Source: a virus. From it: a stretch of DNA of 64,000 bases. A program made the translations under genes and the position numbers. The notes under the pieces are model-generated. The model searched no databases. It had not been told where the DNA came from and saw nothing but the letters and a program-made list of their open reading frames with translations. Location: the IMG/VR virus record IMGVR_UViG_3300005338_000001, positions 14,527-78,526 of that record; one strand, 5' to 3'. Positions within the stretch are counted from its first letter, which is position 1, and each line of letters opens with the position of its first letter. Below are positions 6,797-20,870 of this stretch, in pieces.

Positions 6797-6888
6797 GTCA
6801 GTATCCTCCAATTATCGGATCGGCCACCGCATCCGCGATGCTGGGAAGCTTGGTTTTTAGTCTGGGTCCGGCCATGTCAGTATCCTCC
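6792..6888. repeat. 18-bp direct repeat GCCATGTCAGTATCCTCC (6792-6809, 6871-6888)
   Basis: Exact copies. On the minus strand each reads SD + stop + start. Confidence 0.95.
6798..6875 (-). CDS. 25-aa micro-ORF (MAGPRLKTKLPSIADAVADPIIGGY)
   Basis: GGAGG-ATAC-TGA-C-ATG at both its start and its end; fills the gap between two virion genes exactly. Confidence 0.6.
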   Translation of the reverse strand: MAGPRLKTKLPSIADAVADPIIGGY

Positions 6889-11951: not shown

Positions 11952-12206
11952 GATGAGGAAATTGGACTGGCGCAGGAATTGGAGTCCCGTGCACCAGCAT
12001 GGCCGCAAAGCCACAGCGTCCCGTTACCAGATGCGTGCCGCCGCGTCAACGCCTCAGTTTCAGGTTGACGCGGTTGCGGTGGCTGTGCAGAGTTGCGACA
12101 GGTGGACCTGCAAGTGGCCATCGGGATAAAATCCGAGACACGGGCAGGCGTTAAGGCTTACGGTGAAACGCCGTTATTGAGCCGAGCCGCAAGCCGCCTC
12201 CCTAAT

Positions 12207-12278
12207 CGCGGGTTAATTCATCGGCAGAAATCTGGCCTCATAATCCGGAAGTAGTGGGTTCAATTCCCACACCCGCAA
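12207..12278 (+). tRNA. tRNA(CAU), initiator (fMet)-like with atypical pairs
   Basis: Acceptor CGCGGGT/ACCCGCA with C1xA72 mismatch; loop CTCATAA; T-arm GTGGG-TTCAATT-CCCAC; A73. C31xU39 and A10xA25 mismatches. No encoded CCA. Confidence 0.85.
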
Positions 12279-12328
12279 CCCCTCTGCGAACTTCCTTGCA
12301 TCCGCCGCCGTTGCGACGAAGATACGGA

Positions 12329-13767: not shown

Positions 13768-13968
13768 CTATTCTTCGTCCCCGTAATCACCGCCCCAGCG
13801 GTCTGTGTCATCGCTGTCGTCGTCCAGCACCGCCTTGATGAGCCGATGCTGCTCCACCTGCAAGACTCCGATGGCCGACGCCAATGAAAGCTGGAACTCA
13901 TGGCAGTAGCGCGTCACGAGTTTTGAAAGGTCCGCCTCGAAGGCGATGATTTGTTCGCGCTCAGTCAT
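13768..13968 (-). CDS. Hypothetical acidic protein (66 aa)
   Basis: ATGA overlap with the upstream gene. Confidence 0.6.
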   Translation of the reverse strand: MTEREQIIAFEADLSKLVTRYCHEFQLSLASAIGVLQVEQHRLIKAVLDDDSDDTDRWGGDYGDEE

Positions 13969-14841
13969 GCGGTTGCCGTTTCTAGTCTCTTTGCGCCGAT
14001 GAGCTGCCGCTGAATCCAGATCACCTTGATGACGGTCTTGCCGTTACCGCTGCGCTGGTGGCGAAAGTGTCCGCGACGCCAATGAATGCGGCGGTGCCCG
14101 TGCTCGTTGTCGCCTGCGTCGCCGATAACCGCTTCTGGCTTCCGATACGCGCGGCCAATGAAGTTCGGACTCCACAGTTCGCACTGCTTTTTCTTTTTGT
14201 GCTCCTTTGCTTCGCGGACCTGAACGCCGGTTTCAATGAACTCAGGGCACGCCAGCATCCCAAGGATCAGTTGCAGCGCCGACTTCGGAATGCTCTTGCT
14301 CGCGAACAATTCCTCCTCGGGATTCATCGCCTCTCCATCGTTCTGTCCGTAATCCAATCCGAACCCGTGAACGGTTGCGTTTGAAGCTTCGGAAATTGCG
14401 GTGCTGTCGAGCGGACTTTCCCAAGTGAAAATCTTCCCGCTGGATGCGAGGGCTACGATGATCATCGTTTCGCGTCTCTCGTGAACGGGCCAGTTTGTGA
14501 TGATGGATTTTTGCAGGAACGGATTACTCCACAGCGGTTGTTCAAACGCATACGTGCGACCCGGTTCAGTCTTGATGACCGCCATCAGGTTGATGTGCCC
14601 GCATGGGCAGAGAAGCATTCCATGAGGCAGCGCAAACAGCATCGCCGGAAACGGCCACGGCATTTCTTCCATCGAGAAGTCAGCCGGAAGGTCTGTGTTG
14701 ATGAGCGATTGAAACAGGTCTGCCGCCACAAAGAATGTAGGCACCTCAAAATCATTGAGCGCCCGGATCGCCTTCAGGACGGTGCCTCCCGTGTCGCGAC
14801 TGAACGCAGTGCGATCAACAGCGTGTTCATCGGTGAACTCC
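13965..14841 (-). pseudogene. Uncharacterised MGE protein with a C-terminal HWRRGHFR motif, 5'-truncated by the IS1-like element
   Basis: HWRRGHFRHQRSG...KVIWI. The reading frame runs into the IR at 14842 and the predicted start lies inside the element. Confidence 0.6.
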
Positions 14842-14907
14842 GGTCGTGTATCATTTTGAAAGATTTGCGGACTCGCCACGGTGCGGCGTCTGTGTCAGAC
14901 GTGAGGG

Positions 14908-15024
14908 ATGAACACGAAGCTCAAGGGTAAGAAATTCGATCTCGCACAGCTCGGAAAAGCGATTGTGGATGCGGCGACCAAGCCCGCGAAGAAGCGTGCC
15001 GCGCGGAAAGTTGCAAAGCGCTGA
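14908..15024 (+). CDS. 38-aa basic peptide (MNTKLKGKKFDLAQLGKAIVDAATKPAKKRAARKVAKR)
   Basis: Hand-translated; GAGG upstream; lies just inside the left IR. Confidence 0.5.
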   Translation: MNTKLKGKKFDLAQLGKAIVDAATKPAKKRAARKVAKR

Positions 15025-15125
15025 TTCGATTCGATCTCAGCGATCCCACTTGTTCGGCTTCATGACCGATAGGAACGGCAGCCACAGCAGCACCAGAGGC
15101 GCTACAAGGATGGTGACGAGGGTTT

Positions 15126-15428
15126 TCACTTGTTCGGAGACTGCTGCGCCGTCAGCCGCTTGGCGAGCAGGAACAGTCCGATGGCGACTGCGGCGCCGAT
15201 CGCAACGACGATGCCTTGGACGAGTTCGGTGAAGTAGCCGGTTGAGTGGTACGGATGGAAGATGGATTGCGGGACAAACTTCTGGCCGTGTCCGTCCGCG
15301 ACCGCTGTGCCGTCTGGCGTGACGGTAAAGACCAGAAAGGCCAAGCACGCGTACCACGCTGTCCACAGGCCGGCCACGGCGGACACGATGTAGCAGCAGA
15401 CTGCGAGAATCAGGCGGAGCGGTTTCAT
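15126..15428 (-). CDS. Cargo membrane protein (100 aa, 2 TM)
   Basis: Two hydrophobic segments; 7 nt downstream of the protease gene. Confidence 0.6.
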   Translation of the reverse strand: MKPLRLILAVCCYIVSAVAGLWTAWYACLAFLVFTVTPDGTAVADGHGQKFVPQSIFHPYHSTGYFTELVQGIVVAIGAAVAIGLFLLAKRLTAQQSPNK

Positions 15429-15435
15429 GCGGCAA

Positions 15436-16257
15436 CTACCTCGCGAGCGTCAGCGGCATCAGGGTTGATCCGGATTTGCGCCAAAGCCAGAGTGGCACAT
15501 CTGCCGGCACCGCAAAGTTGAGCATCTGGCCTCGGATGAAATGAGACCTGACAACTGCCACAACCTTGCCACTGGCATCAATCACCGGGCCGCCGCTTGA
15601 ACCGGGAGAGATGGCAGCGGTGATTTGCAGCATCTCATGCTCATCCTCATCCGTCCGTGTTCCGGAAACGATCCCTTCCGTGATTGAGAATTCAAAGCCC
15701 AGGGGATTGCCGATCACTGCAATGCGGGTGCCCGGAGCAACGCGGGTTGCATCGCTCAACTCTAAAAACGAGTGGTTTCTTCCGCCAGTGGAAAGCACCG
15801 CGATGTCGTAGTCCTTGTGCAGAGCGATTGCACCAGCCACGTTGTACACATCGCCGTTGATCGTCTTCACTGTGGCTGTGTGCGCGCCCTCCACCACGTG
15901 AAAGTTGGTCACCAGCAATCCGTCCTCGGAAATGAAGAAACCGGATCCGGTAGCGGTCTTTCTTCCAAATACGTCAAAGACAGAAATCCGCACAACCGCT
16001 CTGCTCGCGTCTTCAAAAATGCGCGCAGTGTCGAACGGTCGCGACGGCTTCTCAGCGCGGACAGGCGCAGGCGTCTCGGCAGCCGAAGCGGTTTCCTTGA
16101 CTGGCGTTGCGTTGTTCCCCGAGTCCTGCCGCAGCGCTCCGATGACCAGCACTAGGGCAATCAGTCCGCCAGCAACCCAGCAAGCAATCTGCACCCGCTG
16201 ATTCAAGCGTTCTGCGGGAGGAGTCTTTCGCAAAATTACCTTCGGTACTCTTCTCAT
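15436..16257 (-). CDS. Membrane-anchored trypsin-like serine protease (S1C/HtrA-like, no PDZ)
   Basis: Catalytic triad motifs TNFHVV, DIAVL and AISPGSSGGP, plus GSGFF; N-terminal TM helix. Confidence 0.9.
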   Translation of the reverse strand: MRRVPKVILRKTPPAERLNQRVQIACWVAGGLIALVLVIGALRQDSGNNATPVKETASAAETPAPVRAEKPSRPFDTARIFEDASRAVVRISVFDVFGRKTATGSGFFISEDGLLVTNFHVVEGAHTATVKTINGDVYNVAGAIALHKDYDIAVLSTGGRNHSFLELSDATRVAPGTRIAVIGNPLGFEFSITEGIVSGTRTDEDEHEMLQITAAISPGSSGGPVIDASGKVVAVVRSHFIRGQMLNFAVPADVPLWLWRKSGSTLMPLTLAR

Positions 16258-16595
16258 GGCATCTGTGGTGCTCTGAAAACGAGCGGCGCGGTCACCGCAT
16301 CCCGCCGAGGCACCTGAGAGAGCCAGCACGGTAATGACAGCGACCGCGCCTATCCGGCGCGATGGCTGCAAAGGACCGTGCGTGAAAATTCTCAGGTTTT
16401 CGGCGGGCCGTTCGCAGAACGCGAAATTGAATGTTGTTGTCCGCTGAAATCAGCCAACGCAAGCGGTTGCGTCAACACAAGAATCACTGGAAGCGCTTGG
16501 AGAGATTCGTTCGGCTTTTAGCGTCACGTTTTTGGGTTGCGAAAAGAGTTGCAAAAAAGAGTTGCGTAGGTCCGCAACACCTGTATCATGCCCTC

Positions 16596-17027
16596 ATGAA
16601 CGAAGACGATTTTGACTCTCAGATTCAACGCGACATCACTGCGATGGAAACGGAATTACGCGACCTTCAGCGCGCACTCGATGCAGCACGAACGTATCGT
16701 GCGCTCCGTCGCAAAAAGGGCGGCGTGAAATCGCCGACCATGACCCCCGATCCGATGCTGCCGCTGACTGCAAATCACACAGCGAAGAACGGCAGCAACA
16801 AGAAACAGACCGCCGCGAAGGCGATCCGCGAAGCCATTGCATCGTGTGCGACCGACTACACGGTTTACGATCTGGGGCGCATCCTCGCGGCGCGCGGCAC
16901 GCCAGTTGGCCGGCCTGCACTCTCACAGTTCCTGTCCCGGCTTTTGAAGGACAAGGAAATCACCCTCAAGACTCCGGGCAAAGGTCCGAAACCAAACGTC
17001 TTCACCAAGGAGGTAACAACCACGTAG
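16596..17027 (+). CDS. Coiled-coil plus winged-HTH DNA-binding protein (143 aa)
   Basis: N-terminal heptads; C-terminal RPALSQFLSRLLKDKEITLKTPGKGPKPNVF. Confidence 0.65.
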   Translation: MNEDDFDSQIQRDITAMETELRDLQRALDAARTYRALRRKKGGVKSPTMTPDPMLPLTANHTAKNGSNKKQTAAKAIREAIASCATDYTVYDLGRILAARGTPVGRPALSQFLSRLLKDKEITLKTPGKGPKPNVFTKEVTTT

Positions 17028-17034
17028 AAAAAGC

Positions 17035-17068
17035 GAACCCGGCGAGCGCTGAAACGCCTGCCGGGTTC
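17035..17068. promoter_or_regulatory. GC-rich hairpin directly upstream of the tRNA
   Basis: GAACCCGGC...GCCGGGTTC. Confidence 0.55.
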
Positions 17069-17073
17069 TAATT

Positions 17074-17146
17074 GTCGTAGTAGCTCAATGGATAGAGCAC
17101 CTGTCTGCTAAACGGGAGGTTGCTGGTTCGAGACCAGCCTACGACG
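17074..17146 (+). tRNA. Class I tRNA with GCU (Ser) anticodon and Arg-type identity elements
   Basis: Acceptor GTCGTAG/CTACGAC; D-arm GCTC-AATGGATA-GAGC; anticodon arm CCTGT-CTGCTAA-ACGGG; 5-nt variable loop AGGTT; T-arm GCTGG-TTCGAGA-CCAGC; G73; followed by CAA. Confidence 0.9.
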
Positions 17147-17235
17147 CAACTAACAAACCAGCGGTTGCCCGCCAGCCTGCACATTGACACGCGCAAGGTA
17201 ACGACGGGACCGCTTAAAAGCAAGCACAAAATCCC

Positions 17236-18087
17236 ATGAACAAACTCGACCGTTCCAAGCGCGCGCAAATCCTGCGCTGTCTCACTGAAGGCACTTCCAT
17301 TCGTGCCGCTGCACGCCTCACCGACTGCGCGATCAACAGCGTGGTGAAACTCCTGATTCAAGCGGGCCGCGCCTGCACGGAGTATCAGGATCGCACACTC
17401 CGAAAACTCAACTGCCAGAGGCTGCAACTCGATGAGGTTTGGAGCTTCGTTTATTGCAAGGAAAAGAACGCCACTGCGGAAGAAAAAGCCGCTGGCGCTG
17501 GCGACGCGTGGACGTGGACGGCACTCGACGCGGACTCAAAGGCAATCGTCGGCTGGTTTGTCGGCCCGCGCAACGCGCGCTCGGCATTCCATTTCATCGG
17601 CGACCTTGTTGATCGGATGGCTTCGCGCAAAGTGCAGATCACAACCGATGGATTGAGTCTCTACGTCAACCCCGTGCATTCGATGTTCTGTGGCGAGGCC
17701 GATTACGCGCAGTTGCAGAAAATCTACGGCACAGAGCCGATGCCGTCTGGCCGATACAGTCCCGCGCAATGCATGGGGAGTCGTCGCGCTGTGCTCAACG
17801 GCAACCCCGATCCCGCACATGTTTCAACGTCCTACGTGGAACGCCAGCATTTGACGCTGCGCATGAACAACCGCCGCTTTACGCGCCTCACGAACGCCTT
17901 TTCAAAGAAGCTGCAAAACCTTGAGCACTCCGTTGCGCTCTACACGATGAGCTACAACTTCTGCAAGATTCACAGTTCGCACCGCGTCACTCCCGCAATG
18001 CAGCTTGGAATTGCGGATCACGTGTGGGAGACAGAAGAGATCGTTGACCTGATTGACGCTCTCGAAATGGCTGGAAATTCAAAATGA
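17236..18087 (+). CDS. IS1-family DDE transposase (283 aa)
   Basis: N-terminal HTH; QLDEVWSFV, ITTDG, STSYVERQHLTLRM, RRFTRLTNAFSKK, TPAM. The stop lies within the right IR. Confidence 0.9.
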   Translation: MNKLDRSKRAQILRCLTEGTSIRAAARLTDCAINSVVKLLIQAGRACTEYQDRTLRKLNCQRLQLDEVWSFVYCKEKNATAEEKAAGAGDAWTWTALDADSKAIVGWFVGPRNARSAFHFIGDLVDRMASRKVQITTDGLSLYVNPVHSMFCGEADYAQLQKIYGTEPMPSGRYSPAQCMGSRRAVLNGNPDPAHVSTSYVERQHLTLRMNNRRFTRLTNAFSKKLQNLEHSVALYTMSYNFCKIHSSHRVTPAMQLGIADHVWETEEIVDLIDALEMAGNSK

Positions 18088-18095
18088 TACACGAC

Positions 18096-18599
18096 CTAGA
18101 AATCAATGATGTTGTGAGAGGACAGGATGCTGACAGGAGGAAGATCGCAATCAACCAGAGCCATCCCCACATCTTCGGCATGTGCTTGCAGCAATGGCAG
18201 GCGCGTCGTAACCAGCATCTGGCAGTTCATGTAGGCCGCCTCCACCAGCACACGGACATCTTGGCGAGATCCACCAGGCAGGACATTTCTTGCGAGGATT
18301 TTGCTCACGTGCATTTTGGTGACTGCTTTTTGAGTGTCCGTAAATGCCGGGCAATCGCAATCACTGTCCTCAATTTCTTGCCGCACCAATCTGGCTCGTT
18401 CGCGTTGTTCCCTGTCTGCTGATTCCGTTTCTGTGGCTGCAATCTCCACAAGAACGGATGGACAGATGATGAGATCGAGCCGGAGTTTTTTCCGGAGAAC
18501 TTGGATTGCTTTCGTGTGATGCGAAATTCCAAACCGCTCCGCAAACAACACTTTCGTGTCAAGAGCAGCCCTACGCGGCTGTTCTTGGGCAAGAGCCAT
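18096..18599 (-). CDS. PIN-domain (VapC-like) protein with a degenerate active site
   Basis: ALDTKVL, PSVLVEI, DVRVLVEAA, LVTTR (canonical DTN...E...D...T-x-D). The stop codon uses the last base of the IS1-like IR. Confidence 0.65.
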   Translation of the reverse strand: MALAQEQPRRAALDTKVLFAERFGISHHTKAIQVLRKKLRLDLIICPSVLVEIAATETESADREQRERARLVRQEIEDSDCDCPAFTDTQKAVTKMHVSKILARNVLPGGSRQDVRVLVEAAYMNCQMLVTTRLPLLQAHAEDVGMALVDCDLPPVSILSSHNIIDF

Positions 18600-18729
18600 T
18601 TTCGGAACGAGCGTAGTTTTCCAACTGCGTCAACTGCTCATCGGTGTAGTCGCTGAGCCGCTCACGAACTTCGTCCAATTCGGCTCCGATGGCGCTCTCA
18701 AAAGCTTCTTCTGTTGGTGTCGTGTTCAT
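18571..18729 (-). CDS. Small acidic protein overlapping the PIN start (antitoxin-like, 52 aa)
   Basis: Hand-translated: MNTTPTEEAFESAIGAELDEVRERLSDYTDEQLTQLENYARSENGSCPRTAA. Confidence 0.5.
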   Translation of the reverse strand: MNTTPTEEAFESAIGAELDEVRERLSDYTDEQLTQLENYARSENGSCPRTAA

Positions 18730-18973: not shown

Positions 18974-19957
18974 TTACAGTCCACCCGTCGTGTCGTGCAT
19001 CGTGAGCCGCTTTCCCTGTGCCTGTTTCAGTCCGGCAACCGTGCGTTCGCCGTCCGTTTCCTTCCGGCTGTTCCAGCGGAAATCGAACTCCGCGACGTAG
19101 CGCCCAAGGTGCTTGCGCGAGATGTGATGGAAGTTTCCGATCACGCCACGGCGCAAAAGCGAGAACGAGCTTTCCGCGTAGTTCGTGGAAACAACTTCGC
19201 CGTCCGGCTCGGTGCGCTGGTATTCGCGTTTCCCGCCAGCCTTTCCGTGCGTCACGAATTTGTGGCGGAAGTCCGCGCCGAGTTTCTTGTATCCGGGATG
19301 CTCGTCCGTGTGAATGGTGGAACCCGCCGCCACGTGCTCACACACGGCTTCGCGCAGGTTCTTGCCCGTCACGATCTCGGAAAGCACAACGGAGCGGCGC
19401 TTGCCCGTCTGGCGCTCTACTAACGCCACGACGGCAGACTTTGATCCACGGCGGAATCCCTTGCCCTTCGTTTTCGGACCGTAGTAACACTCGTCAACCT
19501 CTACCATACCGTTCAGTTTTCCATCGGGAGTGACATCGGCCAGAGAGTGGCGGATGCGATGGCAGAGAAACCACGCGGACTTGTAGGAGCCGAGTCCAAG
19601 GTGACGCTGCATCTGCTTTGCGCTCATTCCCTTTTTCGCACCGCTCATGAGATACCAAGCGATCAACCACTTATCGAGGGTGATGTGCGAGTCTTCAAAA
19701 ATCGTTCCCACCGTGACGCGGAAAGACTTTTTGCACTCTGCGCACTGGCGCAAGCCGACACGGATTTTCTTTTCTTTGTTCGCCGTGAGCTTCCAAATTT
19801 TCTCCGCGTCCGCGTTTCCGCAGTGCGGGCAAACGGGACCGTTTTTCCAGAGGATCGTTTCCATGTATTCGATGGCTTTCTCCTCTGTGGAGAAGCGCGC
19901 CATGATTTCGGGAAGCGTCAAATCTTCCGGCGTGAGAAACGTGTTGCTCTTGTTCAT
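18974..19957 (-). CDS. IS1595-family transposase (327 aa)
   Basis: Zn ribbon CPHC...CAEC, GTIFEDS, VEVDECY, IHTDE, TNYAESSFSLLRR, YVAEFDFRWN. Confidence 0.92.
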   Translation of the reverse strand: MNKSNTFLTPEDLTLPEIMARFSTEEKAIEYMETILWKNGPVCPHCGNADAEKIWKLTANKEKKIRVGLRQCAECKKSFRVTVGTIFEDSHITLDKWLIAWYLMSGAKKGMSAKQMQRHLGLGSYKSAWFLCHRIRHSLADVTPDGKLNGMVEVDECYYGPKTKGKGFRRGSKSAVVALVERQTGKRRSVVLSEIVTGKNLREAVCEHVAAGSTIHTDEHPGYKKLGADFRHKFVTHGKAGGKREYQRTEPDGEVVSTNYAESSFSLLRRGVIGNFHHISRKHLGRYVAEFDFRWNSRKETDGERTVAGLKQAQGKRLTMHDTTGGL

Positions 19958-20004
19958 GCGCGAAGAATCTCACCGCGTAGAACAATTGTCAAGGGGATAA
20001 TCCC

Positions 20005-20798
20005 GAAATGTTGTCGTAACGGTTGACGTAACCGCGAGCGACTTTTTGCAAATAGTCCTTTCGCTGATTCGCGACCCGCTCATGGATTCTCGCCGCACGA
20101 CTCGCTGCTTTCTTGCGACGGTTACTGCCTTTTGTTCGGCGGGCAATCATACGCTGCGCGATGCGCAGTGCCCTCAGTGTGTGTTTGAGGTGCCGTGGAT
20201 TCTCAACCTTGTTGCCTTCACTGTCCGCGACCAGATGCTTGAGTCCGAAGTCCAATCCTACGCTCAGTCCTGTTTTTGGAAGTTCTTCGGTCTCAGTTGC
20301 GCACACGGCCTGCAAATACCAACCACTCGGCTTGTGAAGGATTCGGCAGAATTTGAGCACGCCATTGATGTCCCGATGCCGATTGAACCGGATGCGTCCC
20401 CCGAGCATCTTTCCGGCCTTGAAATAGCTTTCGGAAATCCCATTGCTTACGGCATCTCGGAACTGGATGGAATGCCATCGGTTCGCACCCTTGAAGCGCG
20501 GGAAGCCTTTCTTGTTCGCGCCCTCCTTGCAGCGCCGAAAGAAGTTCGCAAAAGAAACATGCAAACGCTTGAGTGTGGTATCCACAACCACGGCGGGAAT
20601 CTCAGGATGCTCTTTGCTGCCGTGCTTTTTGTCCTGCGCGAAAAGGTTCATGTGCTTTCCGGTCGCCTTGTAGTGGGAAACCAGTTCCACCAGCGCGGAA
20701 TTGTAGAGTTCCCGCGACAATCGCAGCGTCTTCCACAGCGCAGTTTCCTGCGACGGATTCGGCCTGAGACGAAATTCGTAGGTGAGCATCTTCGGCAT
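20005..20798 (-). pseudogene. tnpB: IS200/IS605-type TnpB, truncated before RuvC II
   Basis: YEFRLRPN, RELYNSAL, GFPRFK, VGLDFGLK (RuvC I), KGSNRRKK, NQRKDY. Ends at YDNIS, where the IS1595 end begins. Confidence 0.88.
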
Positions 20799-20870
20799 GA
20801 TGGCGCGCGCAAAAAGAAAGTGCAAGAAATATCTTGACCGTTTTTGGACCACCGTGGTAGATGTAGTCCC

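Follow-up and report, generated by a model that had tools for sequence, protein, structure and literature searches.

Insertion sequences (ISs) of the IS1 family carry a GGnnnTG signature at their ends, as listed in ISfinder, and the deletion of adjacent DNA is a classic behavior of IS1. Natural tRNAs whose anticodon and identity are mismatched are also known, such as those of the Streptomyces tRNA-ProA type and the suppressor tRNAs of phages. ISs with passenger genes have been described under the concept of the transporter IS (tIS) (Siguier, Gagnevin and Chandler 2009, as cited in PMC3129680), which is built mainly on the IS1595 family, unlike the clade considered here. In this work, we have analyzed a 64,000-nt stretch of phage DNA (hereafter the window), which comprises bases 14527-78526 of the 78,526-bp IMG/VR virus record IMGVR_UViG_3300005338_000001, and have focused on a segment of it that contains an IS1-family transposase gene, a tRNA gene, a protease gene and several small open reading frames (ORFs).

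Compared to IS1 of E. coli, the segment shows both shared and different features. It encodes a DDE transposase with the ER-N...R..R.T..FSK region, has GGnnnTG ends, belongs to a group whose members generate 8-bp duplications, carries a small protein gene at the left end, where IS1 has insA, and appears to have undergone adjacent deletion. Unlike IS1, it has only one transposase ORF, the left-end protein of its family (~80 aa) is basic and lacks a zinc finger, and the family has a cargo slot of 0.5-3.9 kb, a promoter abutting the transposase ATG and, in some members, a tRNA. As in the tIS concept, passenger genes unrelated to transposition are bounded by the element's own inverted repeats (IRs).

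We consider it likely that the segment is one copy of a tIS in the single-ORF branch of the IS1 family, that its insertion was accompanied by an adjacent deletion, that its tRNA belongs to a module separate from the transposase gene, and that its protease and membrane protein genes form a one-off cassette.

The element and its relatives

The segment consists of 3255 bp enclosed by perfect 19-bp IRs (left, IRL; right, IRR), which are 100% complementary across 19 nt and are present in only two copies in the whole 78.5-kb genome, with no occurrence of the reversed control pattern. Approximately 5e-5 perfect 19-bp IRs would be expected by chance per 5-kb region. The end motif is GGTCGTG in the window element and GGTAGTG in 57 relatives, both of which fit the IS1-family signature. 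The phage record has direct terminal repeats, is rated 100% complete and contains two tRNA genes in total, with a GC content of 58.5%, from which that of the element (57.2%) is not distinct. The sole other tRNA gene of the phage, tRNA-Met(CAU) at window positions 12206-12281, lies outside the element.

The transposase has more than 8000 homologues, many of which are named as IS1 family and contain PF03400, as does the majority of the 120 best ones; the closest proteins (P0002 and P0003) are 71% identical to it. The NCBIfam model transpos_IS1 matches with E 8.6e-15, under the equivalog cut-off, and all invariant columns of alignment A1, including D66, D138 and E202, are retained. The protein has its own N-terminal helix-turn-helix (HTH) region, and the insA-insB' layout with a -1 frameshift is absent, which places the element in a single-ORF subgroup and not in classical IS1. 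We take this subgroup to be the single-ORF or ISMhu11-type one listed by ISfinder.

Two collections of relatives were used for comparison. The first contains 160 loci (80 from IMG/VR and 80 from GTDB genomes) with transposase identities of 47-59%, or 161 loci including the window. The second was obtained by an exact-IR scan of IMG/VR and JGI metagenomes and contains 126 loci, 17 of them full-length, with the closest transposase being 62% identical; the window cargo was absent from all of these 126 loci. A search of IMG/VR with the single transposase protein revealed no close relatives. The end consensus GGTAGTGNNTCAGTTTGAA was detected in 57 of the 161 loci, in which the IRR finishes 9 nt past the transposase stop codon. 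These IR-bounded elements are 1.3-5.6 kb long, and 48 of the 57 are flanked by a perfect 8-bp target duplication; these 48 are real transposable units, and members of the clade would move by DDE transposition with duplication of 8 bp of target. Almost all of the 57 (54) have a basic ORF of 72-117 aa (~80 aa) next to the IRL, whose product contains the motifs KRPRD-NQLAK-IVDIATGE and GGLKGGKARA...RW. The order of the clade is IRL, small basic gene, variable cargo slot, transposase and IRR. Slots elsewhere contain HTH_3 together with Peptidase_M78, P63C, a HigB-like toxin with an HTH protein, or PIN. The element has one transposase gene, one IRL and one IRR, with the basic-gene remnant and the transposase flanking the cargo, as is characteristic of a tIS.

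With regard to target choice, TTGAC is located exactly 7 nt after the right-side duplication (+16) in 8 of the 48 duplicated elements, compared to at most one at each position elsewhere, and TTG is found at +16 in 13 of them, compared to at most four at any other position. This suggests that part of the family inserts just upstream of a -35 box. The right flank of the window element has TTGTGA at this place, which is a weak match. In one relative (L055), an IR-type sequence in IRL orientation (GGTAGTG...TTTGAA) is found right after the transposase stop codon (6829-6860), in place of the expected IRR, and may represent the start of a second, tandem element.

Some observations speak against regarding this particular segment as a mobile IS1-family unit. 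Its transposase scores 22.9 bits with Pfam DDE_Tnp_IS1 (PF03400), just short of the cut-off of 24.1. The 8-9-bp target-site duplication (TSD) characteristic of IS1 and seen in the relatives is absent at the window copy, whose flanks are GTGAACTCC on the left and TAGAAATCA on the right, and its mobility as a 3255-bp unit is therefore deduced from the relatives. No second copy or empty site could be detected in the phage genome, IMG/VR or JGI metagenomes, and searches of IMG/VR with both flank ORFs found neither an empty site nor related phages.

An earlier note on this DNA had described an IS1-family cargo transposon bracketed by perfect 19-bp IRs, with a 38-aa basic peptide at the left IR, a leftward unit of a membrane-anchored trypsin-like protease and a protein with two transmembrane (TM) segments, and a rightward order of winged helix-turn-helix (wHTH) gene, hairpin, tRNA and transposase. 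The repeats were borne out, and the family assignment agrees with the transposase homologues, the family ends and the TSDs of the relatives. The genes of both units are present; the rightward order recurs in L245, the nearest relative with visible context, and the peptide corresponds to a remnant of a family-conserved gene. All features are listed in Table 1.

Table 1. Features of the element, its flanks and its neighbors (window positions)
Feature	Position	Strand	Basis or remark
Left-flank gene, 5' end cut exactly at IRL	13965-14841	-	~157 N-terminal codons missing
IRL, GGTCGTGTATCATTTTGAA	14842-14860	+	Perfect 19-nt IR; fits the family consensus of 57 loci
38-aa basic ORF, N-terminal remnant of the ~80-aa basic protein of the family	14908-15024	+	Profile match
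30-aa mini-ORF with one TM segment, GTG start	15037-15129	-	Sequence and hydropathy; putative gene
100-aa membrane protein, ~2 TM segments	15126-15428	-	Hydropathy: hydrophobic segments near residues 5-36 and 65-90
Membrane-anchored trypsin-like serine protease (S1C, HtrA-like core), 311 aa	15436-16371	-	Pfam Trypsin_2, E 4e-31
Divergent intergenic region, 224 bp, 50% GC	16372-16595		Candidate operator
143-aa protein, N-terminal coiled-coil helix and probable C-terminal winged helix	16596-17027	+	AlphaFold2 (AF2), Atlas model
GC-rich hairpin	17035-17068	+	Ends 5 nt before the tRNA; no clear T-run
Class-I tRNA, anticodon GCU (reads Ser AGY), Arg-type D-arm, A20, G73	17074-17147	+	ARAGORN; Rfam, 66 bits
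Spacer with degenerate transposase promoter, 88 nt	17148-17235	+	Comparison with the family promoter
IS1-family DDE transposase, single ORF, 283 aa, intact	17236-18087	+	Homologues, NCBIfam, invariant columns
IRR, TTCAAAATGATACACGACC	18078-18096	-	Covers the transposase stop codon and ends 9 nt beyond it, as in relatives
Right-flank 167-aa ORF	18096-18599	-	TAG stop uses the last base of IRR
IS1595-family transposase gene	18974-19957	-	Family search
tnpB cut after 287 aa, adjoins the IS1595 gene	19989-20852	-	HTH_OrfB and OrfB_IS605 domains only

A recurrent tRNA position upstream of the transposase

A tRNA gene on the transposase strand, ending 81-287 nt upstream of the transposase start, was identified by ARAGORN and Rfam in 19 of the 161 loci, which represent 16 distinct elements, with Rfam scores of 44-66 bits compared to a gathering score of 29. 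One of the 17 full-length loci of the exact-IR scan (L245) also has an upstream tRNA. A search for T-arm and acceptor structure in the upstream window yielded 18 matches, whereas approximately 1.4 were expected, and, in a comparison of twelve class-I members, compensatory changes were detected at 20 of the 21 pairs of the cloverleaf. The tRNA is located inside the IRs in the window element, L010, L071, L111 and L151, and in 14 of the 16 tRNA-bearing loci it is downstream of the basic ORF and hence within the element; this position inside the IRs or past the basic gene rules out a host gene that happens to lie beside the insertion. The tRNA-bearing rows are scattered over the transposase tree, whose well-supported branches require at least 10 gains or losses, and approximately 88% of the family members have no tRNA.

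The anticodons found in the slot are GCU, ACU, AGU, AGG, CGG, CGU, GUU, UCC, UUA, UAU, UAG and GUA. Class-I tRNAs with GCU were detected in five elements (the window, L055, L088, L155 and L100, the last by ARAGORN only and 1461 nt upstream), all of which have A20 and A73 or G73, and these five elements are diverged and spread over four parts of the transposase tree. Odd anticodons with A34 are present in L111 (ACU), L051 (AGU) and L106 (AGG). UUA is carried by class-II A73 bodies in two lineages (L010 and L026-29) and by a G73 body on the opposite strand in L090, while class-II G73 bodies carry UAU in L245 and UAG in L114. Two sister elements have tandem tRNAs before the transposase, three in L069 (5626-5877) and two in L071 (5726-5889). 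These tandem sets include a class-II tRNA with anticodon AUA that is scored best by Rfam as tRNA-Sec-like.

The window tRNA is 74 nt long (73 nt up to position 73) and has a variable loop of 5 nt. Seryl-tRNA synthetase (SerRS) requires a long variable arm, whereas arginyl-tRNA synthetase (ArgRS) recognizes A20, C35, U36 or G36, and A73 or G73. The SerRS-type long arm is missing from the window tRNA, and the identity set of ArgRS is complete, with a D-loop AATGGATA that provides A20, the anticodon G34-C35-U36 and G73. In addition, a canonical tRNA-Arg(CCG) of a Verrucomicrobiales genome has exactly the same D-arm, GTAGCTCAATGGATAGAGCAC. The tRNA is most likely real, should be charged with Arg by ArgRS and would read Ser AGY codons. 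As in known mistranslating and suppressor tRNAs, the identity elements A20, C35, U36 and G73 are independent of the altered base and are combined here with G34. It differs from those tRNAs in that it occupies a fixed place in a transposon, its charging is predicted, and the anticodons vary between related elements.

We tentatively favor the view, short of holding it probable, that the tRNA, as cargo, would change decoding and would not serve as a switch on the transposase mRNA. It is more doubtful whether this IS1 clade as a whole keeps a slot before the transposase promoter for tRNAs that change the reading of codons, which would make its members mobile devices for editing decoding. Equally doubtful is the accompanying description of such slot tRNAs as ochre suppressors on Leu- or Ser-type bodies, Arg-type bodies reading Ser AGY and tRNAs with A34 anticodons, usually together with a fast-evolving coiled-coil/winged-helix partner.

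Several points weigh against a decoding role of this kind. The best overall BLAST match of the window tRNA is tRNA-Asn(GUU), at 81% and with U20, and homology does not yield a clear isotype given the Arg-type D-arm on the one hand and this top hit on the other. Arg charging is a prediction derived from the identity rules. Moreover, AGC is the most frequent Ser codon of the phage (17.7 per 1000), so a strong Ser-to-Arg decoder should be harmful to it. As to the partner genes, the winged-helix proteins that adjoin the tRNAs have a common architecture, but hardly any pair of them is significantly similar in sequence. A role of the tRNA in the rescue of codons of the element's own transposase was considered and rejected: every invariant Arg column is occupied by Arg in the window transposase, and no in-frame transposase stop codon is present in any locus with a UUA tRNA.

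The tRNA might instead be a non-decoding structure. As an insulator, terminator or processing site, it would protect the transposase promoter against transcription originating in the cargo slot and would define the 3' end of the upstream mRNA. Its fixed position and orientation by the promoter in at least 16 distinct elements, with varied anticodons and classes, would agree with such a function, as would the anticodon loop of L023, which appears non-canonical by eye. However, the full tRNA signature is kept (G18G19, T-loop and the Rfam scores mentioned above), which goes beyond the need of a terminator, the combination of GCU, A20 and A73 or G73 recurs in diverged elements from four parts of the tree, and the large majority of members are insulated, if at all, without a tRNA. 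On balance, a purely structural role seems unlikely.

Besides the tRNA itself, the gene preceding it recurs in a looser sense. The 143-aa protein has one homologue among 5.8 billion proteins, which is likewise 143 aa long and 91% identical, and a Pfam search gave no hit. Single-sequence AF2 modeling (pLDDT 57) produced a confident helix at residues 3-41 and three low-confidence helices within residues 72-119, and the Atlas model of residues 63-143 has Fur, PadR and ArsR winged helices as structural neighbors at a TM-score of ~0.5, which makes the wHTH identity plausible on the basis of models. A clear orthologue could not be found in ~290 related loci. In six of them (L023, L055, L106, L114, L155 and L070), ORFs of 120-260 aa with a similar architecture (N-terminal coiled-coil helix, linker and C-terminal winged-helix-like domain, with weak HARE-HTH/DUF7669 matches) end 7-140 nt before the tRNA, and most tRNA-bearing relatives have a comparable hairpin ahead of the tRNA.

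The clearest counterpart is L245, which has the closest transposase with visible context (62% identity). Its order is IRL, a 76-aa basic ORF, a 165-aa coiled-coil/winged-helix ORF, a terminator-like hairpin, a class-II tRNA(UAU), a promoter and the transposase, and the 165-aa ORF matches the 143-aa protein of the window with a BLASTP E of 0.007. The window element is an L245-like core plus a protease cassette.

Since the hairpin 5 nt before the window tRNA has no T-run, the tRNA and the 143-aa gene most likely share a transcript, in which case an RNase P cut would leave the hairpin at the 3' end of the mRNA. The winged-helix gene, hairpin and tRNA would then constitute a recurrent accessory module, most likely transcribed from 16372-16595 apart from the transposase. 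This intergenic region contains GTTGC direct repeats that begin at 16536, 16548 and 16561, as well as an inverted GCAAC at 16574-16578, and these repeats are a candidate operator.

We searched the literature for IS1 together with tRNA, for tRNA-like sequences, ISMhu11 and mistranslating tRNAs on mobile elements, and found nothing relevant; in the literature that could be searched, neither a conserved tRNA position nor a coiled-coil/winged-helix partner is described for passenger-carrying ISs.

The protease cassette and the transposase promoter

The leftward genes set the window element apart from its relatives. The protease may start at TTG 16371 or ATG 16257, its His, Asp and Ser residues lie in the motifs NFHVV, DYDIAVL and GSSGGP, and its N-terminal TM helix spans residues 62-80. 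It matches phrog_11383 (E 8e-39) and shares ~30% identity with trypsin-like peptidases of cultured phages. Like HtrA, DegP and DegS (S1C), it has a trypsin-fold core with the His-Asp-Ser triad and an N-terminal anchor as in DegS. Unlike HtrA and DegP, it lacks a PDZ domain (none in a Pfam search), is encoded together with two small membrane proteins and falls far under the curated HtrA cut-offs: NCBIfam Do/HtrA models cover its core alone (residues 138-292) with scores of at most ~107, compared to cut-offs of 250-800. The 100-aa membrane protein has no family in Pfam, NCBIfam, PHROG or PADLOC, and its TGA stop codon is coupled to the start of the 30-aa ORF by a GTGA overlap, which had gone unnoticed in the earlier note. 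With PADLOC, the protease domain alone matched the protease parts of RT-Protease_XI and LmuA and no system-specific model was reached, while the TM protein, the wHTH protein and the transposase gave no match.

Homologues of the protease and of the 100-aa TM protein were absent from the ~290 related loci. The cassette of these two genes is one-off passenger DNA within the clade. The comparison of homologous elements proposed in the earlier note speaks for the tRNA, which recurs before the transposase in 19 of the 161 loci and in L245. Further proposals of that note, namely a meaningful pairing of an HtrA-like protease with a mistranslating tRNA and a role of the cassette in stress or defense, find no support, as no related locus carries the protease or TM protein and the PADLOC matches of the protease are at the domain level only.

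At the left end of the element, the 38-aa ORF fits the family profile only at positions 6-33 (E 8e-4, 3-sequence search), and the C-terminal GGLKGGKARA...RW half of the basic protein is missing there in all three frames. The starting state may have been an L245-like core of basic gene, coiled-coil/winged-helix gene, hairpin, tRNA and transposase, which would then have gained the leftward operon of protease, 2-TM protein and 30-aa TM peptide, and this gain would have cut the basic gene to 38 aa.

Another explanation is that the protease and TM genes are phage DNA trapped in situ, when a rearrangement moved the IRL and ~180 bp away from an L245-like element of 2 kb. The basic gene is cut exactly where the cassette starts, the region has undergone at least one deletion, the GC content of the cassette (57-62%) resembles that of the phage, and the protease has its matches in a PHROG family and in phage peptidases; the restriction of the cassette to this one element would be explained as well. 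Against this, cargo is generally located between the basic gene and the transposase in this clade, truncated basic genes occur elsewhere (for example, in L010), and no related phage with the cassette at a native locus was found. On balance, trapping seems less likely than the gain of a cassette by a tIS.

A different question is how the transposase is transcribed. In 102 of the 161 loci a promoter of the form TTGAC-N16-18-TAnnnT is present within 160 nt upstream of the transposase. In 77 of these, the end of its -10 box and the ATG are 0-9 nt apart (mostly 6-7 nt), an arrangement that implies a leaderless transposase mRNA. A palindrome of the form TTGAC...(G)TCAAG lies over the promoter in several loci; it often covers the -35 box and may be an operator. 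The tRNA-bearing loci have this promoter downstream of the tRNA, and several of the tRNAs are trailed by T-runs. Because a sigma-70-type promoter is located between tRNA position and ATG in so many loci, the tRNA and the transposase are probably separate transcription units in the family. The window copy deviates from this pattern. Its spacer contains TTGACA at 17184-17189 with a -10-like CACAAA ~31 nt away and no Shine-Dalgarno sequence, whereas the sisters L012 and L093, and also L245, have a normal promoter abutting the ATG. The window transposase is probably poorly expressed.

The earlier note had proposed that the wHTH gene, the tRNA and the transposase share one transcript, and that tRNA processing would cut this transcript and might set the level of the transposase; the enzymes would be RNase P and RNase Z. 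The three genes are indeed close together on the same strand, and transcription probably passes through the hairpin 5 nt before the tRNA. As the promoter of the window copy is degenerate, read-through could also be the sole source of transposase mRNA, for this copy alone. In the family, however, the promoter downstream of the tRNA in L245 and in most other tRNA-bearing loci, together with its prevalence in the whole set and the T-runs, indicates independent expression. In addition, an internal AUG without a Shine-Dalgarno sequence is translated poorly, and the transposase AUG within a read-through RNA would be such a case. Control by tRNA processing is therefore not supported, and we consider it quite improbable compared with separate transcription of the tRNA module and the transposase.

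A probable adjacent deletion at the insertion site and implications

The first 13 codons of the left-flank ORF as read (13965-14879, minus strand) originate from inside the IRL. A full-library search returned 1095 homologues of this gene, the closest of which are 412-452 aa long and can be aligned only beyond approximately their residue 160; in the case of P0123, the identity is 51% over residues 166-441. Homology continues up to the end of the IS, with the IR as its exact boundary, and the ~157 N-terminal residues that are lacking do not occur anywhere in the whole phage genome. The 167-aa ORF on the right was considered as this lost N-terminus and ruled out, as there is no similarity. The left-flank family (P0123-P0127) has no Pfam domain and shows a strongly conserved C-terminal HWRRGHFRHQR...IWI motif.

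The loss of the 5' third of the flank gene fits an adjacent deletion. The element would have inserted into a phage gene of ~450 codons, and an adjacent deletion or an equivalent intramolecular event would have removed the 5' third of that gene together with one copy of the target duplication, which would account for the missing TSD. The resulting copy, with perfect ends, an intact transposase ORF and no family-type promoter, is probably poorly mobile or stranded. That the IRs match by chance and the segment is no mobile element at all, as the missing duplication and second copy could suggest, has a negligible probability, considering that the repeat matches the ends of 57 relatives, that its distance to the transposase stop codon is the same as in these, and that the homology of the flank gene ends exactly at the IR.

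Broken mobile elements cluster in the neighborhood. For the IS1595 end near 19983-20004, an inverted copy was not found, and the zinc-ribbon part of TnpB is absent from the whole phage genome. Between the element and the IS1595-family gene, ORFs of 52 and 167 aa with a 29-nt overlap occupy 18096-18729 on the minus strand; they have no family in Pfam, NCBIfam, PHROGs or PADLOC, and by analogy their layout looks like that of a toxin-antitoxin pair.

ISs that carry passenger genes are already known, and what we did not find in the searchable literature is a conserved tRNA position within them that has been gained or lost many times and whose tRNAs often carry anticodons at odds with their bodies. 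The family-wide promoter abutting the transposase ATG is shown by the comparison of loci, and the window would provide a clean example of IS1-type adjacent deletion in a phage genome. If the tRNAs are charged, transposons would spread suppressor and mistranslating tRNAs between bacteria and phages, which bears on the origin and spread of deviations from the genetic code; if they are uncharged, they would be control or insulator elements in the shape of a tRNA, of a kind new to DNA transposons.

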